From a bacterium (lineage in GTDB: Bacteria > Patescibacteriota > Minisyncoccia > Minisyncoccales > JAGLPU01), in assembly GCA_030635055.1 (NCBI GenBank), contig DAOVZN010000002.1, positions 17,481 through 81,480 of the forward strand: a DNA stretch of 64,000 nucleotides, written 5' to 3'. A model generated the notes under the pieces. It had not been told where the DNA came from. It did not search any database and saw nothing but the letters and a program-made list of their open reading frames with translations. This document shows positions 9,238 through 58,757 of the stretch, piece after piece (positions within the stretch are counted from its first letter, which is position 1; each line of letters begins with the position of its first letter). Position numbers and translations under genes: made by a program.

Positions 9238-9319
9238 AATAAATCTAATATATCATATAAAAAAAAATAATCAAGTGTAAGTCTTGATTTTTTAAAATAT
9301 TTTTGATAGTATTAGAAAT

Positions 9320-9565
9320 ATGAAAAAAGATATTCATCCTAAATACTATAGCAAGGCAACTGCTAAATGCGCTTGCGGGAACACTTTTGACATTGGTTCC
9401 ACTAAAGAATTCATTGAAACTGAAGTGTGTTCTCAATGCCATCCTTTTTATACGGGTAAGACAAAAATTATGGACACTATGGGAAGAGTGGATAAATTCA
9501 AAAAGAGGCTGGAAAAAAAGCAAGGCGTTAAAGCTAAAAAAACAAGAGAAAAGAGTAAAAAATAA
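9320..9565 (+). CDS. rpmE: 50S ribosomal protein L31 (Zn-binding form)
   Basis: [29 protein letters not shown]. Confidence 0.97.
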
Positions 9566-10629
9566 TGCCTAGCGTTAGTGAACTTAAAAAAGAATATCAG
9601 GAAATATTAAATAAGCTCAGTGATCCTGAGCTTATTTCTGATTGGGAAAAATTTGAAGAACTTTCCAAAAGAAAAACTTCTTTGGAAAAAACCATAGAAA
9701 AAGAAAAAGAAATTGAAGATATTAAAAATCAAATTGAAGAAAATAGAGCAATCTTAAGTGCCAATGAAGATGCAGAATTTTCCAGCCTGGCCCAGGAAGA
9801 ATTAAATTCCCTGCTAATCAAGCAAAAGAATATGGAAACAGAACTGGAAAAAGAATTAAATCCAGAAGAATCAGTTGAAGAGGTAAGTCCAGAAAAACAA
9901 AACAATACAATAATTATGGAGATTAGAGCCGGAACAGGAGGAGATGAGGCCGCCTTATTTGCGGCCAATCTTTATCGGATGTATTCCCGCTATGCTCAAA
10001 TCAAAGGCTGGAAAGAAAAGGTCTTGAATTCTTCTCGTAACGAAATTGGAGGAACCAAGGAAATAAGCTTTGAGATCAAAGGAGATGACGTCTTTGCTTC
10101 TCTTAAATACGAAGGAGGAGTCCATCGAGTCCAGCGGATACCGGAAACTGAAAAAAATGGCAGAATTCATACTTCCACAGCAACTGTAGCAATTATGCTC
10201 CGACCTAAAAAAACGGAAATAAAAATAAGCTCGGCAGATTTAAGAATTGATATTTTTAGATCTTCCGGACCGGGAGGCCAAAATGTTAATAAAAGAGAAA
10301 CAGCCATCAGAATTACTCATTTGCCAACAGGAATGGTTGTAGCTTCCCAAACAGCCAGGAATCAACTGGCAAACAAAGAAAACGCCATGGCCATTTTAGA
10401 GGCACGATTACTGGAAAAAAAACGGACTGAAGAGGAAGAAAAAAGTGCCGGAAATAGAAAAGCTCAAGTCGGCTGGGGAACAAGATCAGAGAAAATAAGA
10501 ACCTATAATTTCCCCCAGGACAGAATTACGGACCATCGCATCAAAAAAAACTGGCACAATATTGAAAAAATCATGGCCGGAGAAATGGACCAGATTGTTA
10601 CGAGCTTGAAAAAAGGATTAGCAGAATAA
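9565..10629 (+). CDS. prfA: Peptide chain release factor 1
   Basis: EIRAGTGGDEA, GVHRVQRIPET (PxT motif), GPGGQNVNK, EKIRTYNFPQDR. Confidence 0.96.
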   Translation: MPSVSELKKEYQEILNKLSDPELISDWEKFEELSKRKTSLEKTIEKEKEIEDIKNQIEENRAILSANEDAEFSSLAQEELNSLLIKQKNMETELEKELNPEESVEEVSPEKQNNTIIMEIRAGTGGDEAALFAANLYRMYSRYAQIKGWKEKVLNSSRNEIGGTKEISFEIKGDDVFASLKYEGGVHRVQRIPETEKNGRIHTSTATVAIMLRPKKTEIKISSADLRIDIFRSSGPGGQNVNKRETAIRITHLPTGMVVASQTARNQLANKENAMAILEARLLEKKRTEEEEKSAGNRKAQVGWGTRSEKIRTYNFPQDRITDHRIKKNWHNIEKIMAGEMDQIVTSLKKGLAE

Positions 10630-10659
10630 AAAAAGGACGCTGGATTACAGCGTTTTTCA

Positions 10660-12147
10660 TTAGAATATCAATCCATTGCAATAGGAAGACATAGTTCCTT
10701 TATCAATAAAAGCCTGTATACAATCGGCTCGGTTAGCCACTTGTCGGGCATAACTACTTGAACCTCCATAATATCTGGAAGCTGCGTTAGCTTCTGATGT
10801 TCTAGTTTGGGCAGAAGCGCCAAGATCATATAAATATAAAGCGGAAGCAGTAAAAGCGTCTTTTATATTCCAAGGATTGGGAATATCGCTACCTGTATAG
10901 GATTTGACTCTGTCTTCAAATAATACCCAAGTGCTGGGAATAAACTGTGCCGGACCCATTGCTCCGCCAAAGCCAAAAGGCACATATCCGCTCTTGTAAC
11001 AATTGATGTTTCCGCTGTTATCTACCGAGGCTCCGCAAAAAGACGAATTATTTATGCAATTTGGAATCCAGCAAGAAACAGGGGTTTTTGTAAAATCCAT
11101 TCCTAGTTTTTCCGTTATTTCTAGAAAAGGCGGTAAATCACGGATATAGTGTATAATCCGGTCTACCGGCTTGCCGCTTTTATAAATACCACCGCCTCTT
11201 TCTGCATCAGTTATATAACACTGACCTACATTCCTTCCAAGAGCAGACTCCTGGCTGATTATAGCTAGCAAAAAAGCAGGACGAATTTCGACCCTGTCAG
11301 TGACAAGCTTGGCAATGCTGATAGCTTCACCAAAAGTCGGCGCGTCAGGAACTCCTACTAACTTGAAAATCCGGGCCGCAATCTCAGCTGCCGCAATTTC
11401 TGCTTCCTCTTTCTCTACAAGAGATTTTTGATACTCAGCTTCTGTCATTTTAAGTAGACCCTCATGCTCTTTTTTTACATTGGCATTTTCCTTTTTCTGA
11501 ATACTGTTAATGCTTACTGTTTTTTCCAATCCTATTTTTTCGCCATCCAAAGAAACTTTTTGGTTCTCTAAATAATATTTTAAATCTTTTACATTTTCCA
11601 ATAACTCTTTACTTTCAATATTTAACGCCTCTAAAGCCACTAAATCGTTAAAAAAATCAGAAAGTTTATCTTCCTCGAAAAATACCTCTACGATTGATTT
11701 CTGGTCTTCTTTGTGGATTGTTCTTAAAATATTACCCAGTTTCTCTTTAGAATCCTCAATCCCTAAAGAAGTTTTATCAATAGAAACTTCCGTATCTTCA
11801 ATCTGTAAGCTTAAGTCTTCAATCATTAAACTACTTTGATAAATTTGATAATCTAAGTTTTTAATTTTGTTGCCCAAAGTATAAATTTGGTTTTGCAGAG
11901 TTTTCTTTTCCTGGCTGGTTTTAGTTAAATCCTTTTCAATCCTAATACTTTCTTCTTCATAATAATCTTGGCATTTTTCCAATAATTTTTGATAATCTTC
12001 TCTGGATAAAATATTTTCCTGCTTTTCAATATTATCCAAGGCGCAAGTATTTTCTAAATCTTCTTGAGCAAAAAGAAAAAAAGCCGGCAAAATTAAAGCC
12101 GGCAATACAACGAATAAGAAAATTAATTTTGAAGCGCGGAAAAACAT
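10660..12147 (-). CDS. Secreted coiled-coil protein with a C-terminal lytic transglycosylase (MltB/SLT_2-like) domain
   Basis: Signal/TM N-terminus, long coiled coil, AIISQES catalytic Glu, GAMGPAQFIPSTW. Confidence 0.8.
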   Translation of the reverse strand: MFFRASKLIFLFVVLPALILPAFFLFAQEDLENTCALDNIEKQENILSREDYQKLLEKCQDYYEEESIRIEKDLTKTSQEKKTLQNQIYTLGNKIKNLDYQIYQSSLMIEDLSLQIEDTEVSIDKTSLGIEDSKEKLGNILRTIHKEDQKSIVEVFFEEDKLSDFFNDLVALEALNIESKELLENVKDLKYYLENQKVSLDGEKIGLEKTVSINSIQKKENANVKKEHEGLLKMTEAEYQKSLVEKEEAEIAAAEIAARIFKLVGVPDAPTFGEAISIAKLVTDRVEIRPAFLLAIISQESALGRNVGQCYITDAERGGGIYKSGKPVDRIIHYIRDLPPFLEITEKLGMDFTKTPVSCWIPNCINNSSFCGASVDNSGNINCYKSGYVPFGFGGAMGPAQFIPSTWVLFEDRVKSYTGSDIPNPWNIKDAFTASALYLYDLGASAQTRTSEANAASRYYGGSSSYARQVANRADCIQAFIDKGTMSSYCNGLIF

Positions 12148-12156
12148 ATGTTTTAA

Positions 12157-22464: not shown

Positions 22465-22847
22465 TAAAACTTTATTTTTTTCAGGAGTTTCTGCCAAAAG
22501 TTTTCTTTCTCCTCTACTTCTTCTTTCTCGCTTTCCTCTTTAATAAAAGCCACCACCTCTTCCCCTGGCTTTTTAAGGTTAAACTGCTCCCGCGCTTTCT
22601 TCTCTAAATAACTGTCTTGAGAAATCTGGAAAATTCCTGCTTTCAATTCCTGGTTTTCTTTTTCTAAAACCTGTATCTCTTCAGACAAGGAACTAATCCG
22701 AGAGCTAAGTTCTTCTTTTCTTTCGCTCAGCTTTGAATTAGAAGTGAGAAGAAACATTAATATAATCAATGCCAGAACACCAATAAAAGAAAAAGAGAAA
22801 ATAGTTTGGAAAGAATATTTTGCGTTTTTCTTGTATTTTGCTATCAT
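22464..22847 (-). CDS. Septum formation initiator (FtsB/DivIC family)
   Basis: Single TM helix, coiled coil, YLEKKAREQFNLKKPGE motif. Confidence 0.85.
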   Translation of the reverse strand: MIAKYKKNAKYSFQTIFSFSFIGVLALIILMFLLTSNSKLSERKEELSSRISSLSEEIQVLEKENQELKAGIFQISQDSYLEKKAREQFNLKKPGEEVVAFIKEESEKEEVEEKENFWQKLLKKIKF

Positions 22848-22853
22848 ATATTA

Positions 22854-22994
22854 ATGAAAAAGATTAAAAAGAAAACTATTTTTAGAATTATCTGGATTAT
22901 CTTAATATTTTTTGTAATCTTGGGAATGATTGGTTTTTTAATGATTGGCTTTATCTAGCTCAAAATTTTCAAATAGACATCGGGAGGAATTCTG
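22854..22994 (+). CDS. Small single-pass membrane protein (46 aa, below the ORF-track cutoff)
   Basis: MKKIKKKTIFRIIWIILIFFVILGMIGFLMIGLSSSKFSNRHREEF*. Candidate promoter TTGCGT-16-TATCAT lies 6 nt before the ATG. Confidence 0.6.
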
Positions 22995-24837: not shown

Positions 24838-25001
24838 TTATTCGTCGCTACCTGCCATTAACCATGCTATCCCAGAAACTAGAGCAACTGAGACAATTTC
24901 TTTCGCCTCTACGCCACCAGAAAGAACTGTGGCGACCATTAATGCCATGAGGAATGCGCAGCTCTATACAATATTGTGACTGTTGTGCTTATCACCTTCA
25001 C
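24838..25001 (-). pseudogene. Small hydrophobic ORF of mini-cassette 1, apparently frameshifted
   Basis: GTG at 25001 gives MKVISTTVTILYRA. Removing one GC from GCTGCGCATTC continues it as AFLMALMVATVLSGGVEAKEIVSVALVSGIAWLMAGSDE* (stop 24838-24840). Alternatively a 36-aa ORF starts at ATG 24948. Confidence 0.5.
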
Positions 25002-25090
25002 TTACCTCTTTTTCAAAGATCCATCAGCTTAACTAGTTTAGCTAAGCTTCTTTTAAAATTATAATAGCAGAATTTTGTTATTTGTCAAAA
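25001..25090 (-). promoter_or_regulatory. Cassette leader copy 1: -35/extended -10, hairpin, boxA-like motif, SD-like motif
   Basis: TTGACA-16-(TGC)TATTAT, then AGCTTAGCTA-AAC-TAGTTAAGCT, then GATCTTTGAAAA, AGAGGT and GTG. Confidence 0.7.
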
Positions 25091-25291
25091 AGAAAAAGCG
25101 CCATTGGCGCTATTATGTTTTTCTTTGGGATAAAACAATTTATCAATAATATCCACAGCAACAAATATCGTTATTACCAATATTCCTAAGCTAAATCTTT
25201 TGCACCAACTGATTGCGATATGAAGACATAGCCGAATTATAATTTCTGCAAATGTTATTATTGTCATTACTTTTGGAATTTTCATTTTCAC
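25085..25291 (-). CDS. Small hydrophobic hypothetical protein of mini-cassette 2
   Basis: 68-aa ORF with two hydrophobic stretches. A terminator-like AGCGCC-AAT-GGCGCT-TTTTCTTTT overlaps its last codons. Confidence 0.55.
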   Translation of the reverse strand: MKMKIPKVMTIITFAEIIIRLCLHIAISWCKRFSLGILVITIFVAVDIIDKLFYPKEKHNSANGAFSF

Positions 25292-25379
25292 CCACCTCTT
25301 TTTTAAAGATCACTAGTTTGGCTAATTTAACCAAACCTCTTTTACCACTACAATAGCAGGATTTCCTTATTTGTCAAAA
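25291..25379 (-). promoter_or_regulatory. Cassette leader copy 2
   Basis: TTGACA-16-(TGC)TATTGT, then GGTTTGGTTA-AAT-TAGCCAAACT, then GATCTTTAAAAA, AGAGGTG and GTG. Homologous to copy 1 about 290 bp away. Confidence 0.7.
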
Positions 25380-30356: not shown

Positions 30357-30357
30357 A

Positions 30358-32052
30358 TTATTCAAATTTAATAGTTTCTCCGGGCTTAATTACTCCTTTT
30401 TTTACTTCTTCTTTTGGTTTTTGAACAGACTCTTTCAACACTTCTTTTAGTTCTCCAAGATTAACCTCTTTCCTTTTTGGCCTTTCTGTTTGAAGCTCTC
30501 TGCGTGCTGAAAATGGAACAGGAACTTCCCTTAATGCTTCTTTTAAAGACATTCTTTCCTCTTTCGGCTGTTCAACTTTATTAAGCAGACTTTTCTCATT
30601 CTGTACAATCTTTTTATCTATTTTTGTTACTTTTTCTTTTTCTATTTCACCTAAGCAAGGTTTACAATAAACAGGACGAACGCCGTCAGGAGCGAAAATA
30701 ACCTTAATGTCCTTGCCGCATCTACTACATTTAGCATCATAAAGCTGTTTAGATTCCGAACTAACAACCGGAGGCGCTTTTGCCAACTCTGTCCATCTGC
30801 TGATTTTTTCTTCAACAATCTTTAGGGGAACTCCATACCTCTCTTGAGAAACTTTAATAATTTTATCTTTGTTTGACTTTTCAAGAGCAACGGTTGGAGG
30901 AAGCGTCTGGGCGGAAAAAGCATTACCGGCTATACCGTTAATCATTAATTTCAAATAAATATTGTATTTGGCCAAATTGACAATATCCCGAGCCCAAAAT
31001 TCAGGGGAAAACTCTTTCTCTAAAAATTCCGCGTCATCAGCTCCCACCCGGAAAGAAATCAGTGTTCCGACATTTCCAAAAACCGCGTCCCTAACCCCTT
31101 CTTCCATTTGAGTAATGTATTGGTGGCCCAAAATCAAAGACAGCCTGTATTTTCTTGCTTCGGATAAAATACTGACGAATGATTCTGTGGCAAAATTCTG
31201 AAATTCGTCGACATAAAGAAAAAAATCTTTTCTTTCCTCTTCTGGTATATCTACCCGCGACATCACCGCTAATTGTAATTTAGTAATCAAAAGACAGCCT
31301 AATAAACGAGAGGCATCTTCTCCTATTCTTCCCTTGGAAAGATTCAGAATCAAGATTTTTTTCTTGTCCATAATCTCCCTCATATCAAGAGAAGATTTAA
31401 CCTGCCCGATAATATTTCTGATAAGAGGAGTAGAAATAAACTGACCGATTTTATTTTGGATAGCAGCCGTTGCTTCTACTTCGTATTTTTGAGAATAACG
31501 GGAAAATTCAGTAACCCAAAAACTCTTAACAATAGGATCAGTAATCTTATCAATAACTTTTTTCCGATAATCAACGTCTGACAAGACTCTGTTGACACCC
31601 AATAAGGTTGCATCCGGATATTCAAGTAAAGCCAAAATGGAATTATGTAAAATATATTCCATCCGCGCCGACCAAACATCGGGCCAGATCTTTTTAAATA
31701 CTCCCATTAGTCCGCTAGCCACCAAATGCCTGTACTCCGAATCCACTTTTTCCATAATATTAAAAGCAATAGGAAAATTAATATCTGCCGGATTAAAATA
31801 AATAACATCATTAATTCTATTAGAAGGAACAAAATCAAGCAGCCTTTCCGCCGCTTCTCCGTGAGGATCAACAAAACCTATGCCATTTCCCTGCTGAATA
31901 TCTTGAATAGCCATATTTTCCAACATGGCTGTTTTCCCCATGCCTGTCTTTCCCACAACATAAACATGCCGCCGTCTATCGTCGGTTTTAATGCCGAATT
32001 TTTTCATTTGGTTGCGAAAATCCGTTTTCGCAAAAAAATTGATTTCACCCAT
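30358..32052 (-). CDS. VirB4/VirD4(TraG)-HerA-like P-loop ATPase with a C-terminal CxxC-x17-CxxC domain
   Basis: Walker A GKTGMGKT, DPHG, Walker B LYVDEFQNF, EARKYRL, CSRC...VYCKPC. Confidence 0.85.
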   Translation of the reverse strand: MGEINFFAKTDFRNQMKKFGIKTDDRRRHVYVVGKTGMGKTAMLENMAIQDIQQGNGIGFVDPHGEAAERLLDFVPSNRINDVIYFNPADINFPIAFNIMEKVDSEYRHLVASGLMGVFKKIWPDVWSARMEYILHNSILALLEYPDATLLGVNRVLSDVDYRKKVIDKITDPIVKSFWVTEFSRYSQKYEVEATAAIQNKIGQFISTPLIRNIIGQVKSSLDMREIMDKKKILILNLSKGRIGEDASRLLGCLLITKLQLAVMSRVDIPEEERKDFFLYVDEFQNFATESFVSILSEARKYRLSLILGHQYITQMEEGVRDAVFGNVGTLISFRVGADDAEFLEKEFSPEFWARDIVNLAKYNIYLKLMINGIAGNAFSAQTLPPTVALEKSNKDKIIKVSQERYGVPLKIVEEKISRWTELAKAPPVVSSESKQLYDAKCSRCGKDIKVIFAPDGVRPVYCKPCLGEIEKEKVTKIDKKIVQNEKSLLNKVEQPKEERMSLKEALREVPVPFSARRELQTERPKRKEVNLGELKEVLKESVQKPKEEVKKGVIKPGETIKFE

Positions 32053-32079
32053 GACTTTATTATAGGGTATGTGGAGAAG

Positions 32080-33387
32080 CTATTCAACAGGCAAGCTGAA
32101 AGGAGCCTTTCCTTTTTTAGCCTCAACTCTTTTAACTCCCGGAGCATAGGAAACAGTTCTCCCCGGAAAATGATACAAAGTGGCCAGCTCTTCAATATTT
32201 AAAACATAGGTTCCTCCTGATTCAGGGAATAAAGGAGTATCTCGCCCCATATATCTCCTTAAAAGTCTTCTCTTCCTAACATAAACTCTTCTTGCGTCCA
32301 AAAACCATGTCAATACTGTGTGAACCTTGGTAATGGTTTTTTTCCAAGGCTTCATAGCATTCAAATGAGTGGTATTAAATTGATCGAAAAAACCCATAAC
32401 CCATGCTTTATGCGCGCCAAAAAAAGACTCTTTTTTGGCCAGATAAATAAATCTAATATTAGACATAAAAGAGGTTTTACTGACCTTTTCTTCAATTTTC
32501 GTTACTATCTCCCTCTCTCCGGGAGTAAGCTTCATTTCCGGAGGGATGAACTCTCTTGTCTCGGATTTTTTTTGTTCCATTTTTTCGCCGAAAACCAATA
32601 AATCAGTCGCTCCTATCAAGTCATCTTTATTAATCATTATAGATGGCTTTCCTGACTCTGCTGGCCTCTTTATTAATTTATTTACTGCGTCCCGGCCTAG
32701 CTTGGGAAAATCATAGTCCACTGACGGCACAAGCGGCTTAGCCATAATTTGAACCCATAATTGTTCTCCCGGACCTAATTTTGACATTCCTTCCAACAGG
32801 GGAGATAATGGGTCAATTCTTTTTTCTTCTTTGCTGGCCTCCGGGCTGGTTTCGAAAAAACTGCTATAAGTCTTAATAGGATAAATTTCATTCTTCATTA
32901 GCTCATAATCACAGCCCCAAAGCTCCCACTCCTTGTTAGGCATGGTTTTGGGAACATTTTTAATATAATCGTCAACAATTGAAATCTCAACATCCGGGTA
33001 CTGAGAATAAATAGAAGATTCAACCATATTGCGCAAATTTTTAGGCACTCTGATATAAAAATGTATTTCGCCTTCGATGGAAACAATTTCTAGTGACAAA
33101 GTTAGCAGAAATTTTCCTTCCAGCCATTTTTCCCGCGGATTCGGCGGATCATAAATATGCCATAAACCAGAAAAAACCGCTTCCATAGCCCGTAACGGTT
33201 TTAATACTTCTATGGGAGGTTTTATTTCCAAAAGGATGCGTTCAATTTTGCTGTCAAAAACTTCCTGCCTCCACCAAAGATAAAGGAATTCAAAAGAACG
33301 ATAAAGAATAAAAGGCAACGGCACCCACCACCACGCCTTAACGAAATCTCTTAAGACATTAAAAATTATTAAAAATTCCTCCTCCAT
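32080..33387 (-). CDS. Hypothetical membrane-anchored protein upstream of the ATPase
   Basis: 435 aa, N-terminal TM, YSQYPDVEI, YPIKTY, EELATLYHFP. Resembles CPR proteins that accompany these ATPases (recollection, not searched). Confidence 0.75.
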   Translation of the reverse strand: MEEEFLIIFNVLRDFVKAWWWVPLPFILYRSFEFLYLWWRQEVFDSKIERILLEIKPPIEVLKPLRAMEAVFSGLWHIYDPPNPREKWLEGKFLLTLSLEIVSIEGEIHFYIRVPKNLRNMVESSIYSQYPDVEISIVDDYIKNVPKTMPNKEWELWGCDYELMKNEIYPIKTYSSFFETSPEASKEEKRIDPLSPLLEGMSKLGPGEQLWVQIMAKPLVPSVDYDFPKLGRDAVNKLIKRPAESGKPSIMINKDDLIGATDLLVFGEKMEQKKSETREFIPPEMKLTPGEREIVTKIEEKVSKTSFMSNIRFIYLAKKESFFGAHKAWVMGFFDQFNTTHLNAMKPWKKTITKVHTVLTWFLDARRVYVRKRRLLRRYMGRDTPLFPESGGTYVLNIEELATLYHFPGRTVSYAPGVKRVEAKKGKAPFSLPVE

Positions 33388-33402: not shown

Positions 33403-34434
33403 CTAAATTTTTATAAAATATTCTCCTTGGTCGTTCCTTAAAAAGTGTTTTTTGTTTTGTAAATTTAAAATAATGGTATTTTCTTTTACTTGCCGCTGTT
33501 CTAAAACTTTGGCAACTAATTCCTCTCTGGTCATTGGTTTTTCCCGCTCCCTTAAAATTTTCAAAATAACATCTTTAACTACACCAGGCTCATATCCCCA
33601 TTCTTTTAAGGCGTAAACTCCCCGGCCGACTAAAACAAACCTATCGTCACGAATCAATTCATTGTGCACGGTCTGAGGAAGAACAGTTCCTTTTATTCCT
33701 TTAGCGTCATTAATAAGGTCAGTCACCTCTTTAAAATACAAAGGTCTGTTCTCTTCTTTAAGTATTAGATAAGCCTTGTCTCTAACTCCCTTTGGGTTGA
33801 CTTCCGGCCAAAAATCTAAGCCAAGCCGTTCATTAGGCGCCTGGGCAACCTGTCGGGAAACTTCAATAAAAGATAATAAAACCGGAGCGCTTAATGTTTT
33901 TTTCGTCTGCGGCAAAACTTCATGCTGATAAATTTTAAAAATCTCTCCGAGGCAGAGAGGTTTGTTTTCTTTTTTGAATTTTTTAACGAAAAAATCGCCA
34001 ATTTTTTTGGCCAAACTTGCTGAATTATTATCAGTTGTCCAAAAAGGATAAAAATTCTGTTCTCCTTTTACTCTTTTAAAACCATCTCCTAGGACCAACA
34101 AAAAGAAAACATGGTTAGAGTGTTTTTCTCCTCCCAGTTGTTCCAAGAGCTTGTCTTCTCTTTTTAAGCTGCCTTCTTTTTCAAGATAATCAGTAAAATT
34201 CTTAAAAATCTTCTGGTAAGAAGAGTTGTTGCTTTTAATCTTAGCACTTGCTTTCTTCAACCCGTCTTCTTGTATTTGACGCACCCTTTCCCGGGTGATG
34301 CCGTATTTTTTGCCGATTGCTTCCAAAGTTTCCTTTTTTCCTGTCTCCAAACCAAAACGGCAAACAACAACATCCTTTGACCTAGGAGGTAAATCTTTTA
34401 CTAAATTTTTGCAAATATTTGGATAATTAAACAT
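33403..34434 (-). CDS. Sigma70 region-4 HTH plus HARE-HTH (RNAP delta-like) protein
   Basis: RFGL...TLEAIGKKYGITRERVRQI and QTVHNELIRDDRFVLVGRGVYALKEWGY. Confidence 0.8.
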   Translation of the reverse strand: MFNYPNICKNLVKDLPPRSKDVVVCRFGLETGKKETLEAIGKKYGITRERVRQIQEDGLKKASAKIKSNNSSYQKIFKNFTDYLEKEGSLKREDKLLEQLGGEKHSNHVFFLLVLGDGFKRVKGEQNFYPFWTTDNNSASLAKKIGDFFVKKFKKENKPLCLGEIFKIYQHEVLPQTKKTLSAPVLLSFIEVSRQVAQAPNERLGLDFWPEVNPKGVRDKAYLILKEENRPLYFKEVTDLINDAKGIKGTVLPQTVHNELIRDDRFVLVGRGVYALKEWGYEPGVVKDVILKILREREKPMTREELVAKVLEQRQVKENTIILNLQNKKHFLRNDQGEYFIKI

Positions 34435-34467
34435 GTTATTATTTTATATAACAATTTAAAGATACTG

Positions 34468-35364
34468 TCAAGCTTTTCTTTTTTCCCAGCTGACTAAAAC
34501 AGAATTTATTAAAAACATTGAAGAATAAGTTCCTGCAATAATTCCCATGATCAAAGCTAAAGAAAAATACTTAAGAGTTTCTCCACCAAAAAAGAAAATA
34601 GCTATTAAAACAAACAAAGTAGTCAAGGAAGTGTTGATTGAACGAGTTAAGGTTTGCCGCAAAGCAACATTTACTGTTTCTTCAAAAGTGAAGTTTGTTT
34701 TTTTGAAAAGATTTTCTCTGATTCTGTCAAAGACCACCACTGTATTATTAACAGAATATCCAAAAACAGTAAGCAAAGCGGTAATAACCGGAATGGTTAT
34801 TTGGATACCGTAAAATTTGCCTAAAATTGAGAAAATTCCCAAAGGAATCAACACATCATGGAAAAGAGCGACTAAAGTGACTACTCCATATTGCCAGCTG
34901 GCCATTGGCCTAGAAACTTTCCTGAAAGCAAAAGAAATATACAGAATTATTGCCAATAAGGAAAAGGCTATTATCATTCCTGTCTTTTGGGTAAGTTCTC
35001 TCCCAATCACCGAGCTGATAGCTTCAAAAGCCGGTTTGGTCTCCTGATCAATTTCTCCCAACTCTGCCAATTTCTGAATAATTTCATCGCAAACCTGCTG
35101 ATTGATATTTTTTTCTCCAACGCTTAAGATAACTCCTGACTCACCCACTTGCCGGAGAGATAAATCTTTAAAATCAAAATCAGAAAGCTTCTCCTTAATA
35201 AGGTTGGTATTAGGCCTAGCGTCTTGGTACTCTATTTCCAAAACGCTGCCTCCCTTAAATTCAATACCAAAATTCAAACCAAAAACAGACAGACAGATCA
35301 AGCTTGTTAAGACCAGTGTTCCTGAAAAGAAGAAATATATTTTGCGATATTTTAAAAAATCCAT
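34468..35364 (-). CDS. secF: Protein translocase subunit SecF
   Basis: GIEFKGG, LFHDV, GYSVNNTVVVFDRIRE, TLTRSINTS, GTYSS. Confidence 0.95.
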   Translation of the reverse strand: MDFLKYRKIYFFFSGTLVLTSLICLSVFGLNFGIEFKGGSVLEIEYQDARPNTNLIKEKLSDFDFKDLSLRQVGESGVILSVGEKNINQQVCDEIIQKLAELGEIDQETKPAFEAISSVIGRELTQKTGMIIAFSLLAIILYISFAFRKVSRPMASWQYGVVTLVALFHDVLIPLGIFSILGKFYGIQITIPVITALLTVFGYSVNNTVVVFDRIRENLFKKTNFTFEETVNVALRQTLTRSINTSLTTLFVLIAIFFFGGETLKYFSLALIMGIIAGTYSSMFLINSVLVSWEKRKA

Positions 35365-35376: not shown

Positions 35377-37095
35377 TTAGCGCCAAAGCCATTTCCAGTT
35401 TTCAAATATTGTTCCAGTAAAAACTCTTAAAAAGTTTTTAGTGATAAAAATCGCTGAAAACATGCTTAATAAAATTCCAATACTTAAAGTTAAAGCAAAA
35501 CCTTGAACAAAGCTAGTACCAAAGCTGAACAAAATAAACGCTACCAATAAAGTAGTAAGATTGCCGTCGCAAATTGAAGACCATGCTCTTCTAAAACCCT
35601 CTTCAACAGAATAAGAAAAAGAATTTCCATCTTTTAGTTCTTCTCTCATACGGGAAAATATAAGAACATTAGCGTCAACCGCCATACCAATAGATAAAAT
35701 AACTCCTCCCATACCGGCCAAAGTCAGGGTGACGGGAATTAGCTTGAAAAGAGCCAAGAGCAAAACTGCATAAACCAGCAAAGAAATTGACGCCAATACT
35801 CCCGGCAAGCGATAAAACACAATCATAAACAGAATTACTGCCAAAAATCCATATATGCCGGCCACTAATGATTTTTCCAAAGAAATCGCTCCCAGGCTCG
35901 GACCAACGGTTTTCTGATAAATCGGTTCGCCGATATCAACCGGCAAAGCACCAGCCTTCAACCTCCTGACAATTTCTTTTGCCCGAACAATGTCCATATT
36001 GCCGCTTATCACCGCCTTGCCGCTGGTTATCGGCTCTTGAATTGTCGGAGCATAAATATCCTCAAAAGTAATCTCTCCATCGCCAGTAGTGTCAACAATT
36101 GACATTCCATCCAAAAAAATGGCTAAAGGTTTGTCCACATTTCTTTTTGTAATTTCAGCGAACATTTGCGTCCCTTCTTTTTTAAATTCTAAAGCTATTG
36201 TCGGAGCCCCTGAAGTCGGCTCAAATTCCAAACGAGCTGTTTGCAAATGTTCTCCGCCCAGCCCTGTATATTTCCAAGGCGTCCATTGCGATAAATCCAG
36301 ATAATCAAATTTGGTTTTTATTCTAATTAAAATATGGCTGGCTTTAACTTCGTTTTCCCGAACATCTGTTTTTTTAATAATATGGTAGCCATAAACAGTT
36401 TCCACTAAGTCTTTCGTGATTTCTCCTGTTTTCAGTTCGTCAAAAACAGCTTTTTCAAACTGTGGCACCATTGTTCCTTTGGAAAACCAGCCCAAATCTC
36501 CGTCTTTCTCTTGAGAAACAGTATCTTCAGAGTATTCTCTGGCTAAAGAAGCAAAATCCGCACCCTCTTTCAGCACCTCAGCCAAAATCCGTTTGGCTTC
36601 GACTTTAATAACTGCATTATCTGCTTCCATTTGATTTTCCTGTTCAGGAGTAAGCTCTGGCAAAGTGTTTTCTTCTTTAAATTCCAATAAAGGGGTCTCT
36701 CCAATCCATTCTAAAGCTTGGCTAACATCTTTTACATTCGGAAGCTCTACTACTAAACGCCAGTTTTCCCCAGCTTTACTGGTTGTTATACGCGGTTCAG
36801 AAACACCAAAAGTATTTATTCTCCTTTCGATAACATCACGCACTCCTTCCATAGCCGAGTCTCTATCTCCTTCCGAAATATCAGACAAATCTGCTTGATA
36901 AATTAATCGGACACCTCCCTGTAAATCCAAACCGAATTTAAAAGGCAGGGACCAGAAATGAGGCACTTGCCATGAAAGTTTGGAGTTTAGATTATCGGCT
37001 GTTTGGTTGAAACATTTAGGCTCTACAAAATTGCCGGCGAGAAAAGCCAGAAGGAAAATAAAGACAATAGTTAAGTAAATTCTCGTTTTTACCAT
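35377..37095 (-). CDS. secD: Protein translocase subunit SecD with an inserted parvulin PPIase domain
   Basis: GLDLQGG, RRINTFGVSEP, IGMAVDANVLIFSR. Insert contains FASLAREYSED...GDLGWF...GYHIIK. Confidence 0.93.
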   Translation of the reverse strand: MVKTRIYLTIVFIFLLAFLAGNFVEPKCFNQTADNLNSKLSWQVPHFWSLPFKFGLDLQGGVRLIYQADLSDISEGDRDSAMEGVRDVIERRINTFGVSEPRITTSKAGENWRLVVELPNVKDVSQALEWIGETPLLEFKEENTLPELTPEQENQMEADNAVIKVEAKRILAEVLKEGADFASLAREYSEDTVSQEKDGDLGWFSKGTMVPQFEKAVFDELKTGEITKDLVETVYGYHIIKKTDVRENEVKASHILIRIKTKFDYLDLSQWTPWKYTGLGGEHLQTARLEFEPTSGAPTIALEFKKEGTQMFAEITKRNVDKPLAIFLDGMSIVDTTGDGEITFEDIYAPTIQEPITSGKAVISGNMDIVRAKEIVRRLKAGALPVDIGEPIYQKTVGPSLGAISLEKSLVAGIYGFLAVILFMIVFYRLPGVLASISLLVYAVLLLALFKLIPVTLTLAGMGGVILSIGMAVDANVLIFSRMREELKDGNSFSYSVEEGFRRAWSSICDGNLTTLLVAFILFSFGTSFVQGFALTLSIGILLSMFSAIFITKNFLRVFTGTIFENWKWLWR

Positions 37096-37130
37096 TGGTT
37101 TAATATAGGCTCAAAAAGCTTAATTGTCAA

Positions 37131-40004: not shown

Positions 40005-40036
40005 ATTATTTAATTATTTCATTTTTAAAAGAAAAG

Positions 40037-40912: not shown

Positions 40913-40916
40913 TTTA

Positions 40917-40974: not shown

Positions 40975-41006
40975 ACTATATTTTACATTATTGAAATAAA
41001 AAAAGC

Positions 41007-41076
41007 AAAAAACCTCGCTTAAGCAAGGTTCTTCGCCAACAAAGAATTATGCGGAGTTTGCACTCTCGCACTCACT
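41007..41076 (-). ncRNA. Candidate ~70-nt small RNA A
   Basis: Promoter TTGACA-17-TATTCT (41111-41083). GNRA hairpin TGCG-A-GAGT-GCAA-ACTC-CGCA. Terminator AACCTTGC-TTAA-GCGAGGTT-TTTT. No ORF. Confidence 0.5.
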
Positions 41077-41094
41077 GAAATTAGAATAACAAAT

Positions 41095-45656: not shown

Positions 45657-45658
45657 AA

Positions 45659-46219: not shown

Positions 46220-46223
46220 AAAA

Positions 46224-46982
46224 TTATTTATACAGCAAAGTTAAATACCAATTAAAAATCTTTTCACCCCAAAAAATGCTAATCAAGGTTCCAGTCACTA
46301 AAAATGGGCCAAATGGCACTTCTGACTTTAAACCTTTCTTATTTAAAACGATGAGCACTGTTCCTATTATAGCACCAATAAAAAAACCTAGGAATAGGGC
46401 TATCAGAATATTAGGAAAATTTAGCAGCAAGCCCATAAAAAGAGCTAGTTTAACGTCCCCAAAACCAATCCAGCGCCCCCTGGAAATAAGAAAAATTGCC
46501 AGAAAAAAACCAGCCGCTGCCAGAGCGCTTATAACAGCGGAATAGAAAATATCAATTGACTGAAGATTTGAAACCAGCTGGTAAAAGAATGAAATGATTA
46601 TCGCCGGGAAAATTACTTTATCCGGAATAATATAATATTTAAAATCGTAAATAAAAATAACAATCAAAAAACAGAAAGCGAGAAGCAAAAAATAGGAATG
46701 CTGCGTTAAGGCAAGCACGAATAAAGCTCCTGTAGCCAATTCTGCTAAAAAATATTGTGAAGAAATCGGCATTTTGCAATACCGGCATTTTGCTTTTAAA
46801 AATAAAAAGCTGAAAATAGGAATTAAGTCCTGCCAAGACAATGGATGCTTGCAATGAGGACAATAAGATCTTTTAACTAAAAAATCTTCATTATTATGAA
46901 GACGGCAAACCAAACAGTTTAAAAAGCTTCCAATGATTGTTCCTAAGATAAAAAACGCTGGATATAAAAATATGTCTGACAT
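46224..46982 (-). CDS. pilD: Prepilin peptidase
   Basis: GSFLN, RSYCPHC, KCRYC, GFGDVKL, VPFGPFL. Confidence 0.93.
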   Translation of the reverse strand: MSDIFLYPAFFILGTIIGSFLNCLVCRLHNNEDFLVKRSYCPHCKHPLSWQDLIPIFSFLFLKAKCRYCKMPISSQYFLAELATGALFVLALTQHSYFLLLAFCFLIVIFIYDFKYYIIPDKVIFPAIIISFFYQLVSNLQSIDIFYSAVISALAAAGFFLAIFLISRGRWIGFGDVKLALFMGLLLNFPNILIALFLGFFIGAIIGTVLIVLNKKGLKSEVPFGPFLVTGTLISIFWGEKIFNWYLTLLYK

Positions 46983-47015
46983 TTTTTTATTATATCAAAA
47001 AAACGCTATTTCCGC

Positions 47016-47047
47016 AAAAAAAGCAGAGAGATCACTCTCTGCTTTTT
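47016..47047. terminator. Terminator after the major pilin gene
   Basis: AAAAAGCAGAGAG-ATCA-CTCTCTGCTTTTT. Confidence 0.8.
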
Positions 47048-47066
47048 ACGATCGAAAATGTTTGGA

Positions 47067-47495: not shown

Positions 47496-47596
47496 TTTTA
47501 ATTTAAAATATAAATAATTATTTGTCTTTTCGACCTTTAATATTTTTACTCTTTTATTATAACATATTTGAGCAAACAAGCTGTGGAAAACTCATT

Positions 47597-48802
47597 TTAC
47601 ATTCCTCCAATCTGGTAAAGAGGAATATAAACAGAAACGACTAAAATGCCCACTCCTCCACCTAAAGCAACAATCAAAATCGGCTCAATAATACTTAACA
47701 GTCCGTCCATAAAAGCATCAATTTCACCTTTATAAAAATCCACAATTTTCATTAAAGTAGTATCCATTGTTCCGGTTTCTTCTCCAACTTTCATCATTTG
47801 AGCAAAAAGAGGCGAAACAAAATCTGGATATTCTTCTAAAACAGAACTCATGCTTTTGCCTTTTATTACATTTTCTTTAGTAGCTAAAATAATCTCTCCG
47901 TAAATAGAATTATCTATAACTTCCGCCGCAACATCCAAGGCTTTGGCGATCGGTATGCCGGCCACAACCAAAGTAGAAAGGTTCTCAGCAAAACGGGAAA
48001 GATAAACGCTTTTTAAGAAGTTTTTGACCAAAGGAACTTTCAGAAAAAAAGAGTCAATAGCTTCTCTACCCTCTGCTGTTTTCGCATATTTCACTATTGC
48101 TATCGAAGAAACAATAAAAGAAACTATTATCGCCCACCACCAAGCTATCATAAAATCAGAGATAGCCATCATTATCTGAGTTGTTGGCGGCAGATCCACT
48201 TCTGCCTCTACCAGCACACCTGCTAATTGAGGGAAAATATAGATCATCATTACAAAAAATATCGCCACAAAAACAAATAAGATAAAAGAAGGATAAATCA
48301 TAGCTGTTTTCAGCTTCATATTAAGCTGATATTCTCTTTCCAAGTGGTCAGCTACCCGGTTTAACACGCTTGAAAGCTTCCCCGTAACTTCTCCTGATTT
48401 GACCATGTTTACATAAAAATTAGAAAAGATCTTCGGATAAAGCGCAAAAGCCTTGGAAAGAGGAGTTCCACTTTCCACTTCTTCGGCAATCCTAATAATC
48501 TTTTCCTGAAATTCAGCTTTTGATATTGACTTGGCTAGAGTCCTCAACGCCTGAGCTGGAAGAATTTTAGATTCTATCATTATAGACAGCTGACGGGAAA
48601 ACATCACTATATCTTTTTGTGAAATTCCGCCAAAAATTCCAATATTTTTAAAAATTAAAGAAATATCCTCTTGTTCTTCCAAAAAAGTAATATAAAGTTT
48701 GTGCTCTTGTAAAACCTCAAGAGCCGCTTCCTCGGAAGAGGCTTCCACTGTTCCAGATTGCTCTTCGCCGTCTTTGTCTCTTGCTTGGTAGTTAAATTTC
48801 AT
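47597..48802 (-). CDS. pilC: Type IV pilus platform protein
   Basis: FSRQLSIM, GEVTGKL, AMIYP, VGEETG. Confidence 0.93.
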   Translation of the reverse strand: MKFNYQARDKDGEEQSGTVEASSEEAALEVLQEHKLYITFLEEQEDISLIFKNIGIFGGISQKDIVMFSRQLSIMIESKILPAQALRTLAKSISKAEFQEKIIRIAEEVESGTPLSKAFALYPKIFSNFYVNMVKSGEVTGKLSSVLNRVADHLEREYQLNMKLKTAMIYPSFILFVFVAIFFVMMIYIFPQLAGVLVEAEVDLPPTTQIMMAISDFMIAWWWAIIVSFIVSSIAIVKYAKTAEGREAIDSFFLKVPLVKNFLKSVYLSRFAENLSTLVVAGIPIAKALDVAAEVIDNSIYGEIILATKENVIKGKSMSSVLEEYPDFVSPLFAQMMKVGEETGTMDTTLMKIVDFYKGEIDAFMDGLLSIIEPILIVALGGGVGILVVSVYIPLYQIGGM

Positions 48803-48815
48803 ATTTTCTTGAGTT

Positions 48816-49883
48816 TTATCTGACTAATCTCCCTAACTCAGCTGGAGTTGCAGAACAACTGAGGGCTTTTTCCAAAGAAATTTCTTTAGCCCTGACAAGG
48901 TTAGCCAACGCTTTATTTAAAGAAATCATTCCTAATTCCGCTGATGTTTGGATTATTAAAGGTATTTCATAAACCTTATTCTCTCTGATTAAATTAGCCA
49001 CTGCCGGAGTACGAATCAATATTTCGCATACCGGAATCAGTCCTCCCTTGATTCTGGGAACCAGCCGCTGAGAGATAATGCCCAAAAGAGAACCGGCTAA
49101 TTGGGCTCTTATCTGCCCCTGCTGCTCAGAAGGAAAAGTGTCTACAATTCGGTGGATGGTCTGGGCGGCTGAATTAGTATGCAGAGTGGCAAAAACCAAG
49201 TGTCCTGTTTCCGCAGCAGTAATGGCAGTGCTGATAGTTTCCTGATCCCTCATCTCTCCTATCATGATGACATTCGGATCCTGGCGAAAAGTGGCTTTCA
49301 AGGCGCTGGAAAACGAAGGAGTATCCTGATAAACTTCTCTTTGGTCAATAATAGAGCGGTCATCTTCAAAAACATATTCAATCGGGTCTTCAATGGTGAT
49401 TATGCGCTCTGCCCGAGAACGATTTATTTCGTCAACCATAGCGGCCAAAGTAGTGGATTTTCCTTGTCCTGAAGGACCGGTGACTAAAATAAATCCTTGT
49501 CTATGGGTGGCAAATTCGTGCAAAGCAGACGGAAGATTTAATTCTTCAATAGTCGGCACCTTTGACGGTATCAACCGAAGGGCAACACTAATGTTTCCTT
49601 TTTGAAAATAAATATTTACTCTAAATCTAGCTTGATTATCAAAATAATAAGAAAAATCAAGCTCCTTATCTGCAAACAACTTTTGTTGCTGTGATTCATT
49701 CATCAGCGCAAAAGCAAGCCCTTTGGCCGTCTCAGAATCAAGTTTTTTTTCTTTAATTAATGGCACTAGCCGGCCGGCTATCCTTAAAACAGGACAATGC
49801 CCGACTGAAAGATGCAGGTCAGAGGCTTTCTCCTGCACAGTAAAACTAAGCAGCTCATCCATTTTTTTTCTATAATTATTCAT
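48816..49883 (-). CDS. pilT: Type IV pilus retraction ATPase
   Basis: ASDLHL, GPSGQGKSTT, TIEDPIE, AAETGHLVFATLHT, VANLIRE. Confidence 0.93.
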   Translation of the reverse strand: MNNYRKKMDELLSFTVQEKASDLHLSVGHCPVLRIAGRLVPLIKEKKLDSETAKGLAFALMNESQQQKLFADKELDFSYYFDNQARFRVNIYFQKGNISVALRLIPSKVPTIEELNLPSALHEFATHRQGFILVTGPSGQGKSTTLAAMVDEINRSRAERIITIEDPIEYVFEDDRSIIDQREVYQDTPSFSSALKATFRQDPNVIMIGEMRDQETISTAITAAETGHLVFATLHTNSAAQTIHRIVDTFPSEQQGQIRAQLAGSLLGIISQRLVPRIKGGLIPVCEILIRTPAVANLIRENKVYEIPLIIQTSAELGMISLNKALANLVRAKEISLEKALSCSATPAELGRLVR

Positions 49884-50250
49884 CTTTTTTTAATACTTTT
49901 TTAATTTCTTCAACAACCATGCTTGGTGTATAATGCGCTTTAATAAGATATTTAGTCGCTCCCAATTTTAATCCTTTTTCTACATCAGTCCTCTGCCCTA
50001 AATTGGAAAGAATAACCACTGGAATATTTTCAAATCTTTCTATCTCTTTAATTTTTTTTAAAATAGTCCAGCCGTCAAGATTAGGCAAAACAATGTCCAA
50101 AATGAAAAGCTCTATTTCTTCTTCCTCTAATTTTTCAAAAACTTCATCTCCGTTATTAGCGACTGAAACATTAAAACTAAGCTCCTTTAATTTGGTGCTG
50201 TAAATATCTATTAGAAAAGGGTCGTCTTCAATAAGTAAAATAGATTTCAT
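49876..50250 (-). CDS. Single-domain response regulator (CheY-like)
   Basis: IEDD, LDIVLP (phospho-Asp), LSN, YLIK. Confidence 0.9.
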   Translation of the reverse strand: MKSILLIEDDPFLIDIYSTKLKELSFNVSVANNGDEVFEKLEEEEIELFILDIVLPNLDGWTILKKIKEIERFENIPVVILSNLGQRTDVEKGLKLGATKYLIKAHYTPSMVVEEIKKVLKKDE

Positions 50251-53049: not shown

Positions 53050-53604
53050 TTATTCTGCAGTTTCAAAATTATAAGAAAAAACTTTTGGATAAAAAGAAAT
53101 ACTTAGATTAAAATCAATTCTCCCGTCTAAATTCATTTGAATATTTGATAGACTGACTCCCTCAACTAATTCGTGATTTTTTAAAACAATCATCTGTTGT
53201 CCCAAGGTTTGGAAATTATCAGTCTCTCCGGAAAGATCAACAGTAAAATCATTAATACTCAAATTGATATTAGAGAACCAAACCCGATTATGACACCATT
53301 CTTCAAAATTAGTAAAAAAACTGGAAATAAATCTATGGTTGGCAAGCAATTTTGAAAAATCCTTAATTTGTCCTTGTGTCTCTAAAACTTCTTTTTCTTT
53401 TATTTTTTCTTCTATGGTCCCTGCCTGCCTTATCTCCATTTTAATATCATCCAAGTTTTTAGAATAACTGGCAATGAAATGGTCAAAAACAAAATAACTG
53501 CCCACTGAAACCAAAAACAAAACTAAAGAAAGATAAAACAATATCGTTACCCATAAAGCTTTGTCTGTTGTTCTTTTGTTGTGAGGAGTTATTTGGATTG
53601 CCAT
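53050..53604 (-). CDS. pilN: PilN-like alignment protein
   Basis: TM helix, coiled coil, ferredoxin-like C-domain; located between pilM and pilO. Confidence 0.75.
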   Translation of the reverse strand: MAIQITPHNKRTTDKALWVTILFYLSLVLFLVSVGSYFVFDHFIASYSKNLDDIKMEIRQAGTIEEKIKEKEVLETQGQIKDFSKLLANHRFISSFFTNFEEWCHNRVWFSNINLSINDFTVDLSGETDNFQTLGQQMIVLKNHELVEGVSLSNIQMNLDGRIDFNLSISFYPKVFSYNFETAE

Positions 53605-53643
53605 ACTATAATAATATAATGAAAAAAATTAAGATGCAAGAAC

Positions 53644-57638: not shown

Positions 57639-57647
57639 AATTGAAGT

Positions 57648-58373
57648 TTATTTTAATGTTTCGGCTTCCAGAACTTTTTCTTTAGTGCCGTCAAAATTTA
57701 AAAAGAATACAGTAAAAACCACTACAAAATAGGCTGCAACTATATCTATAGAAGTATTTACTGCCATATTAGAAAGCCAATGTTCCGGCAATAAGAATAT
57801 ATATAAAAAGCCAACCAACATGCCAGCTAAAAAAGACAAGAGACTTAAAGCCAAGCAATACCATAATACTGTCCACCATCTGCCCTGAACAATGCTCTTG
57901 CTGTAGTCTAAAGCCTTTTTCCCTGATTTATCGCATAAAACCACGGCATACAAAACAAATGTCCAATAGACAGCATAAATTATCCCTGGAACTATTAAAA
58001 GTAAAGTCAGACCCAGCAAAAATATGCCCATCATAATATTGGTGCCTATTGCTGTTGTCCATTTTGACAGCGCTTTTCCCAATGCTTGCTGAAAATCAAT
58101 TTGTCTGCCATCTGTTCTGGATTTCACGATATAAGCAATTGCCATAACCGCGATTATTCCAATAAGCCCCTCTAATATCTGTACGATTCTTGCATAGTTT
58201 TCAGAACTTCCGAGAAACTCTCCTTCCGGAACAAATAATAGAACAATATTAATTGGAATATAAACCAGTAGGACAACAATTAAAATTGTCTTAAAATTCT
58301 CCTTGAATATTTTCCAAGCCTCAGAGAGTATTTCACTGATAGAATATTCTTTTTTATAAATTGTTTCTTCCAT
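57648..58373 (-). CDS. Hypothetical integral membrane protein
   Basis: Five to six TM segments; LLIVPGI...ALDYSKSIVQGRWW pattern. Confidence 0.75.
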   Translation of the reverse strand: MEETIYKKEYSISEILSEAWKIFKENFKTILIVVLLVYIPINIVLLFVPEGEFLGSSENYARIVQILEGLIGIIAVMAIAYIVKSRTDGRQIDFQQALGKALSKWTTAIGTNIMMGIFLLGLTLLLIVPGIIYAVYWTFVLYAVVLCDKSGKKALDYSKSIVQGRWWTVLWYCLALSLLSFLAGMLVGFLYIFLLPEHWLSNMAVNTSIDIVAAYFVVVFTVFFLNFDGTKEKVLEAETLK

Positions 58374-58378
58374 ATTAT

Positions 58379-58714
58379 TTAAGTTAGCTTAAGGCCGTTT
58401 AGAACTTTTTGTTCCGGTACAGCCAAGACAACATTATTATTATTTAAAACAAAGCCTGTTGTAAGAACTTCTGAAACAAAGTTCGCAATCTGTTTGGGCG
58501 GAAAATTGACCACGCAAATAACCTGCTTACTTAGTAAGTCTTCTTGAGAGTATAACTCTGTAATTTGAGCGCTTGATTGCTTGATTCCCAGCTCGCCCAA
58601 ATCTATCCAGAGCTTATAAGCCGGTTTTCTGGCTTCGGGGAAGTCTTCCATCTTAATCACAGTCCCCACTCTAATATCCACCCTAGCAAAATCATCCCAA
58701 GTTATCTGTTCCAT
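58379..58714 (-). CDS. csaA: CsaA-type tRNA-binding/chaperone OB-fold protein
   Basis: [34 protein letters not shown]. Confidence 0.88.
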
Positions 58715-58757
58715 AATTTATCTTATCATTTTACGCCTTAAATTCAAGCATCATGGT

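Follow-up and report, generated by a model that had tools for sequence, protein, structure and literature searches.

We analysed a stretch of 64,000 nucleotides (nt), hereafter the window (G000:C24:17481-81480), from a patescibacterial genome (Minisyncoccia; Minisyncoccales; JAGLPU01) in which hexamers of the form TAnnnT, resembling the -10 box of sigma70-type promoters, recur a few nucleotides upstream of start codons. The genome comprises 767,979 bases in 25 contigs at 37% G+C and is rated 89.6% complete; 818 genes were called with a dicodon model, 798 of which were usable for the analysis of starts, and the protein names of window genes were checked against Pfam. An earlier, sequence-only reading of the window had cited seven promoter-to-ATG arrangements, from which it proposed widespread leaderless messenger RNAs (mRNAs). 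All seven were found and are listed below with further sites of the same kind, and we show that such boxes are concentrated exactly 6 nt before the start codon across the genome, marking a conserved class of genes whose mRNAs are predicted to be leaderless.

9284..9322, plus strand: rpmE (ribosomal protein L31) promoter; TTGATT at 9284-9289, 17 nt, TGa and TAGTAT at 9307-9312, 7 nt, ATG at 9320.
9237..9283, minus strand: rpsB (ribosomal protein S2) promoter; -35 TTG, TG and TATATT ending 9 nt before the ATG at 9237, predicted leader about 2-3 nt.
22820..22958, plus strand: small open reading frame (ORF) of 34 codons for a membrane peptide; TTGCGT at 22820, 16 nt, TATCAT at 22842-22847, 6 nt, ATG at 22854, stop at 22956-22958.
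32050..32087, minus strand: promoter of a TrwB/TraG-type coupling ATPase gene; TTGAAT at 32087, 17 nt, TATAAT at 32064-32059, 6 nt, ATG at 32052.
34432..34471, minus strand: promoter of a gene with Sigma70_r4 and HARE-HTH domains; TTGACA, TAAAAT ending 6 nt before the ATG at 34434, in a 33-nt gap.
37093..37130, minus strand: secD promoter; TTGACA at 37130, 17 nt, TATATT at 37107-37102, 6 nt, ATG at 37095.
46980..47017, minus strand: pilD (prepilin peptidase A24) promoter; TTGCGG at 47017, 17 nt, TGa and TATAAT at 46994-46989, 6 nt, ATG at 46982.
53602..53639, minus strand: pilN-like promoter; TTGCAT at 53639, 17 nt, TATTAT at 53616-53611, 6 nt, ATG at 53604.
58712..58747, minus strand: csaA-like (tRNA_bind) promoter; TTGAAT at 58747, 16 nt, TGa and TAAGAT at 58725-58720, 5 nt, ATG at 58714.
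63447..63461, minus strand: RidA/L-PSP gene; TGc and TATAAT ending 6 nt before the ATG at 63449.

About ten of the 63 genes called in the window are of this leaderless type. The rpsB and rpmE genes are divergent, with back-to-back promoters in one 82-nt gap (9237-9320), and residue 1 of the L31 protein aligns to position 1 of the Pfam Ribosomal_L31 profile. The secD promoter occupies the entire 35-nt gap after secA, and that of the pilN-like ORF, for which Pfam gives no match and which follows pilM, lies in a gap of 39 nt. Upstream of the ATPase gene the gap is 27 nt, with the -35 element sitting in the 3' end of the preceding gene, and at the RidA/L-PSP gene it is 7 nt, the promoter therefore lying inside the upstream gene. 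The Sigma70_r4 and HARE-HTH gene (33403-34434, minus strand), whose promoter was absent from the earlier list, sits with its own leaderless-type promoter between the secDF and ATPase genes and encodes a 343-residue protein that combines sigma-70 region 4 (residues 13-61) with HARE-HTH (residues 219-279), an unusual pairing. SecD (35377-37095, minus strand) carries a PPIC-type rotamase (prolyl isomerase) at residues 152-245, between the N-terminal P1 part and the P1 head.

Plotting the distance from TAnnnT to the start genome-wide, an analysis that the earlier reading had proposed, revealed a sharp peak above the null models. In 89 of the 798 genes, exactly 6 nt separate the end of a hexamer from the first ATG, against a background of 29.5 taken as the mean over distances of 12-40 nt before the ATG (binomial p 8e-20); first-order Markov resampling of each gene's own 40 nt upstream, repeated 500 times, gave 32.1 +/- 5.6 with a maximum of 51, and a conservative independent-column model expects 56.2 (p 1.6e-5). 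The earlier reading had placed the boxes 5-7 nt before the ATG, of which the central distance stands out, those of 5 and 7 nt (24 and 31 genes) being near background. In a test free of gene calls, 29 of 2437 matches to TTGnnn-N16-18-TAnnnT have the ATG of an ORF of at least 60 residues at 6 nt, compared with 4-18 such ATGs at each of 30 other distances, and a TAnnnT at 6 nt precedes 1.2% of 3339 internal ATGs. The share of genes with the 6-nt hexamer varies with the gap to the upstream gene, amounting to 24% of 82 genes with gaps of 15-39 nt, 13.5% of 355 with gaps of at least 40 nt and 5.6% of 339 with gaps below 15 nt.

The geometry around these hexamers is that of a promoter. A TGn extension accompanies 31 of the 89 hexamers at 6 nt, compared with 8.4% of 855 control hexamers located 12-40 nt upstream of starts (Fisher p 1e-10), and a -35 TTG accompanies 24 of the 89, compared with 11.7% of controls (p 2e-4), with a spacer peak at 17 nt (15/89, 16.9%, vs 5.4% of controls). 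At distances of 7, 8 and 9 nt, sites do not exceed the background in number but are enriched in promoter features, TGn or a -35 TTG being carried by 15/31, 13/37 and 11/40 of them, respectively, vs 17% of controls. Scored with a generic sigma70 matrix and cut off at 8 bits or more, sites at 6-9 nt were detected before 74 of 794 genes and 13 of 3111 internal ATGs. The signal is also tied to the AUG codon itself: the first possible start of the ORF is ATG in 83 of the 89 genes with a 6-nt hexamer, and GTG and TTG starts show no 6-nt peak, with TAnnnT found in 2 of the 41 genes that have no early start other than GTG or TTG. In both position and geometry, the boxes thus act like sigma70-type promoters with a predicted start at the AUG or no more than about 3 nt away from it, as the sequence-only reading had supposed.

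The arrangement is conserved in a same-genus genome, G001, of which 501 kb of about 600 kb could be compared at 82% nucleotide identity, with 399 reciprocal best hits at a median of 84.5% amino acid identity. G001 has a 6-nt peak of its own (47/484 vs 14.7 expected). After ortholog pairs with differing N-termini had been set aside (17 leaderless-type, 69 other and 12 with Shine-Dalgarno (SD)-like motifs), 40 of the 46 leaderless-type genes with a matching N-terminus were also leaderless-type in G001, compared with 15 of 229 genes of other types; TAnnnT at 6 nt, chosen in the study genome alone, was retained in 21 of 24 cases, vs 52 of 131 at 15 other distances. Upstream identity between the two genomes peaks at -7 (0.96), -15 (0.92) and -12 and -11 (0.88), and also at -9, and lies at 0.60-0.80 from -6 to -1. 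Among the window promoters, that of rpmE is kept at 7 nt and that of rpsB (C24 25878-26717) is retained by its G001 orthologue, so that both divergent promoters persist; the ATPase boxes are the same but at 7 nt; pilD has TTGAGA and TGtTATAAT at 6 nt with a diverged spacer; and the pilN-like promoter and that of the Sigma70_r4 and HARE-HTH gene are kept. In the small ORF, length, stop and TAnnnT (TACCAT) are preserved at 79% nucleotide identity, a conservation confounded by the overlap of its promoter with a divIC-like start on the opposite strand.

Across the genome, the 798 genes fall into five classes by the signals before their starts.

83 of 798 genes: -10 box at 6-9 nt with TGn or a -35 TTG (strict sites), with about 20 expected by chance.
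44 of 798 genes: bare TAnnnT at 6 nt.
72 of 798 genes: SD-like motif.
310 of 798 genes (39%): less than 15 nt from the upstream gene, with none of these signals.
289 of 798 genes (36%): others, standing alone with an A-rich context and T at -1, and no SD.

Leaderless-type genes thus make up about 10-16% of genes and roughly a quarter of promoter-proximal genes, a substantial minority; a promoter scoring 8 bits or more is predicted for 200 of the 401 genes that have 25 nt or more upstream, and in 57 of these 200 it is located at 6-9 nt. The claim of widespread leaderless mRNAs therefore stands as to the existence of a genuine class, though it is a minority one. The companion proposal, that first genes are leaderless and downstream genes are coupled, is borne out in part: short gaps and overlaps are common (in 667 same-strand pairs there are 100 overlaps of 1, 4 or 8 nt, and 159 pairs are spaced by 0-10 nt), but it leaves aside the 289 genes that stand alone. 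This third mode, leadered and SD-free, is the commonest for uncoupled genes, and its start context is shared by all genes, coupled ones included, with A at 51-60% from -6 to -3 and T at 58% at -1. A bare hexamer is also found at a giant ORF of 3784 residues (window 2-5440, minus strand, running on to C24:11566), where TAAAAT ends 6 nt before the ATG at 5440, with neither TGn nor a -35 TTG.

The sequence-only reading had further stated that the ribosome is without an anti-Shine-Dalgarno (anti-SD) sequence, and this is confirmed by the tail of the 16S ribosomal RNA (rRNA), which has no CCUCC. The non-coding genes of the window are a full-length 16S rRNA gene, RNase P RNA and three transfer RNAs (tRNAs), the first of which reads as follows.

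5697..7185, minus strand: 16S rRNA gene; 3' end GGATCATTACATTT (5710-5697), without CCTCC.

E. coli-type 16S tails read GGATCACCTCCTTA; the sole assembled 16S here ends in ...GGAUCAUUACAUUU, and CCTCC was found neither in this tail nor in the following 300 nt. A search for a second 16S or a trans-acting anti-SD gave one 16S match only in the genome assembly, and intergenic matches to CACCTCC, TCACCTC, CACCTCT or ACCTCCT were rejected as anti-SD candidates, being the reverse strands of SD-like motifs, tRNA pieces or hairpins. A metagenome scan with a 24-nt word of the study 16S returned 0 contigs, and a 25-nt word from helix 45 (h45) is common to metagenome-assembled genomes labelled Parcubacteria, Paceibacterota, Nealsonbacteria, Gribaldobacteria and Moranbacteria, and also Saccharibacteria. 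Duplexes of -6 kcal/mol or stronger with the genome's own tail are not enriched, occurring in 2.5% of upstream regions vs 4.3% of controls (798 genes). The ribosomal protein uL1 (PF00687), present in 14 of 14 control genomes, was not found in this genome, the completeness of which (89.6%) leaves its absence unproven; bS21 (PF01165) was likewise not found in the genome, and a bS1-type protein of 397 residues with four S1 domains is encoded. The 16S gene is without a 23S gene downstream (window 5400-5700, minus strand), and an element GTCGA(C/T)-N5-7-TTGAA, which may be part of a pre-rRNA processing stem, occurs about 10-25 nt after the degenerate tail here and in most relatives (loci L001-L028).

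Loss of the anti-SD is common among relatives, with 15 of 17 readable 16S tails in the same order, and 16 of 26 in a class sample, lacking CCTCC. Four related genomes were examined for the peak and for SD use.

G031: tail without anti-SD; 6-nt peak 40 vs 11.1; GGAGG 9/217 vs 2.
G039 (same order): tail CACCTCCTTA; 6-nt peak 27 vs 15.1; no SD enrichment.
G033: tail TCTCC; 6-nt peak 23 vs 12.5; GGAGG 16/144 vs 0.
G050 (another order): tail CACCTCCTT; 6-nt peak 24 vs 9.5; GGAGG 13/144 vs 1.

The A-rich start context with T at -1 is common to all four. G039 keeps CACCUCCUUA yet shows the peak, and no SD use; G050 also keeps CACCUCCUUA and shows it. The comparison with anti-SD-retaining relatives, which the earlier reading had suggested, therefore shows the peak there too, if in weaker form in G039, and speaks against the tie which that reading had drawn between the leaderless layout and anti-SD loss: being shared with anti-SD keepers, the layout is not a consequence of the loss. 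Because it is shared across the class, anti-SD keepers included, SD-independent initiation is likelier to have come first and decay of the 16S tail to have followed, which suggests that the anti-SD tail was lost since it was already little used, and not in the reverse order.

The sequence-only reading had inferred that SD-based initiation is replaced, yet SD-like signals persist: 72 mostly accessory genes carry strong SD-like motifs (GAGGTGA/GGAGG), with GAGGTG or GGAGG 6-8 nt before the ATG. Within the 22 nt before the ATG, GAGGT occurs in 43 of the 355 genes separated from the upstream gene by 40 nt or more vs 5 in control windows, and GGTGA in 27 of these 355 vs 2; in 54 of 79 cases the distance from the end of the motif to the ATG is 6-8 nt. 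SD-like genes are shorter (median 150 residues), have average G+C and occur among leaderless-type genes on shared contigs, and their leaders often consist of a 5' hairpin followed by an A-run. Orthologues in the G001 sample were found for 19 of the 72, compared with 41% of the bare-hexamer class and 45-59% of the remaining ones (other, coupled, strict leaderless), and 33 of the 42 SD-like genes scanned with Pfam match no family. Two tandem cassettes in the window exemplify this class.

24950..25375, minus strand: two tandem SD-like cassettes, each with a TTGACA-N16-TATTGT/TATTAT promoter and a hairpin leader; aaaaaGAGGTG/GAGGTA lies 8 nt before the ATG at 25285 (a 66-codon membrane ORF) or a GTG.

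The GAGGTGA motif would pair with a canonical 16S tail at -13.1 kcal/mol and with the study genome's own 16S at -4.5 kcal/mol. Residual pairing of GAGGUGAU with the own tail was considered and rejected, the best duplex having 6 base pairs, two of them G-U, at -4.5 kcal/mol; moreover, the G031 tail would pair slightly better, yet the GAGGT class amounts to 2/399 there. Deep conservation of the SD-like site was likewise not supported, the GGAGGA of a purP-like gene being present in the study genome and G001 and not in the G029 and G007 homologues; within the order, 4 of 41 genomes were found to have this gene, and its nearest Atlas clusters are labelled archaeal, which we treat as a lead only. 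A fixed second motif (GCACATTTAAA / CTCTTTAAAA) upstream of GAGGTG proved weak (6/72 vs 1-2/296), and where sequences were inspected these words resemble the 3' halves of leader hairpins. The likeliest origin of the SD-like class is import from SD-using donors, in which case it would mark a horizontally acquired gene pool. If functional, the SD-like leaders (about 70 genes in the genus) might be read without a 16S anti-SD, which we consider doubtful; this would need a second, unassembled and divergent 16S, and hence specialised ribosomes, or a protein or other rRNA as receptor. A release-factor-2-like ORF (C25:17793-18659) has the motif GGEDAQDW near its called start and GAGGT upstream; its first ATG lies within an apparently longer reading frame, an observation that bears on a possible prfB frameshift site.

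Terminator-like hairpins are enriched in the part of the window examined for them (30000-49999; 42 vs 16.1 +/- 4.0 in shuffles). At 5 of the 83 strict sites, vs 2 of 284 controls, a terminator hairpin and T-run lead straight into the TGn/-10 box (C8:5726-6574, C8:50527-51216, C2:17957-18907, C18:91240-92682 and C24:7797-8699), such that terminator, promoter and start codon fit into about 50 nt; with so few cases, a terminator abutting the promoter was rejected as a general module and is a real but minor arrangement. Elsewhere in the window, the EPSP synthase is apparently split into a 359-residue ORF (59048-60127) and a 97-residue ORF (58758-59051) on the minus strand, overlapping by 4 nt, the Pfam match of the shorter one being confined to roughly the final 50 profile positions; likewise, inorganic pyrophosphatase is matched only in part at 62235-62579 (114 residues).

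Taken together, we consider it probable that the boxes are sigma70-type -10 elements giving leaderless or near-leaderless mRNAs, on which ribosomes start at the 5' AUG without an SD. The hexamers would be the -10 boxes of housekeeping promoters, many with TGn or with a TTGnnn -35 element 17 nt upstream; RNA polymerase would start at the A of the ATG where the box lies at 6 nt, or 1-3 nt before it where the box lies at 7-9 nt; and the ribosome with initiator tRNA would bind the 5'-terminal AUG without SD pairing. This mechanism would apply to about 80 genes, some 10% of all and about a quarter of those with their own predicted promoter, many of them housekeeping genes such as those for L31, S2, SecD and PilD. 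The genome would thereby use four start modes, namely leaderless initiation, coupling to an upstream gene, leadered starts in an A-rich, U(-1) context, and SD-like leaders in a minority.

That the promoters are real but transcription begins a few bases before the ATG, or translation at a later start codon, giving short-leader mRNAs, is unlikely. In its favour are the featured sites at 7, 8 and 9 nt (15, 13 and 11 genes), which would yield leaders of 1-3 nt if transcription started 7 nt after the box; some G001 orthologues also differ in this distance, 6 against 7 nt or 7 against 9 nt. The sharpest peak nevertheless falls exactly at 6 nt, where the ATG's own A is the sole purine at the positions at which transcription usually begins, because -1 is so often T, and N-termini agree within 3 residues in the 46 compared leaderless-type orthologue pairs. 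Leaders of up to about 5 nt are, in any case, usually counted as leaderless. It is still less probable that TAnnnT-N6-ATG acts at the RNA level, as an A/U-rich, Kozak-like or S1-binding context on leadered or polycistronic mRNAs. The start context common to all genes, the bS1 protein with its four S1 domains, the many sites in very short gaps behind an upstream gene and the lack of an overall enrichment of promoter-like matches would fit such a role; an RNA context needs no TTG 17 nt upstream and no TG at one base's distance ahead of the hexamer, however, both of which are enriched only at the 6-nt distance, and conservation falls on T-12, A-11, T-7 and T-15, not on the bases adjoining the ATG. 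Finally, AT-rich composition, upstream stop codons (TAA/TAG) or the choice of starts might have produced the peak artificially. Some 6-nt hexamers in packed genes do begin with the upstream stop (TAAACT before cysS, TAAGCT before 60819-61145), and two of three stop-derived hexamers checked are not kept in G001. The Markov null and the gene-call-free test, which likewise peaks at 6 nt, did not support this explanation; the peak is at its highest among genes without an abutting upstream neighbour and the pattern is conserved in relatives, making an artefact highly improbable.

Several observations weigh against the leaderless interpretation. Placement of the first transcribed base at the AUG draws on promoter geometry known from other bacteria, a search for RNA runs matching window 30001-40000 having returned none. 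Promoter-like matches as such are at chance level (53 vs 51.2 +/- 7.6 in shuffles of window 30000-49999), AT-rich DNA producing them readily, so that only position relative to the ATG is informative. Chance would account for about 20 strict sites out of 83 and about 30 bare hexamers out of 89 at 6 nt. Gaps shorter than 45 nt hold 26 of the strict sites, several without a terminator, where read-through transcripts are possible and the same box would then lie inside a leader. The start of each gene was taken as the first ATG of its ORF in our own calls, as opposed to a validated annotation. Lastly, the peak is 1.8-fold in G039 and G033, compared with 3.0-3.6-fold in three genomes, and some link of the peak to anti-SD status may exist; the comparison covers six related genomes, too few for a correlation, with a 16S tail known for all of them except G001.

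Leaderless gene architecture is reportedly a feature of Mycobacterium tuberculosis and is found in Deinococcus and in GeneMarkS-2 'group C' genomes. As in these, a TAnnnT -10 box precedes the start codon of the genes described here at a constant short distance, there is no space for an SD, and the AUG is predicted to lie at the 5' end; the bacterium, however, is an ultra-small member of the Candidate Phyla Radiation (CPR), in another phylum, and has wholly lost the anti-SD. The leaderless share, based on predicted starts (about 10% of genes, about a quarter of promoter-proximal ones), is similar to that of mycobacteria and below that of Deinococcus. SD-independent initiation with an A-rich, Kozak-like context is said to operate in Bacteroidia, which keep the anti-SD but sequester it. 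As in Bacteroidia, most genes here have no SD and are A-rich before the start; in contrast to them, the anti-SD is gone from the 16S gene, and T at -1 and a leaderless class are added. A Parcubacteria subgroup without the anti-SD and uL1 has already been published (Tsurumaki, Saito, Tomita, Kanai 2022, RNA 28:1041, PMC9297842), and the present genome agrees with the description of that subgroup in its 16S tail without CCUCCU and in that uL1 and bS21 were not found. The word 'leaderless' does not occur in that article (PMC9297842), the consulted passages of which address neither what replaces SD pairing nor the persistence of SD-like motifs. In the literature searched, which did not cover subscription journals, we found no description of leaderless genes in Parcubacteria, CPR or Patescibacteria, and nothing on the anti-Shine-Dalgarno in combination with Patescibacteria. 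The novelty is thus a predicted class of leaderless genes, conserved and so far undescribed in print for this lineage, the architecture itself being known from other phyla.

In practice, gene finders that depend on an SD will assign wrong starts in such genomes, for which a -10 box 6 nt upstream is a usable start signal. For the organisms themselves, the genome analysed here offers a partial, testable answer to how start codons are found in anti-SD-less Parcubacteria: about a quarter of its promoter-proximal genes would be leaderless, and the others would be started through coupling or through the A-rich, U(-1) context.

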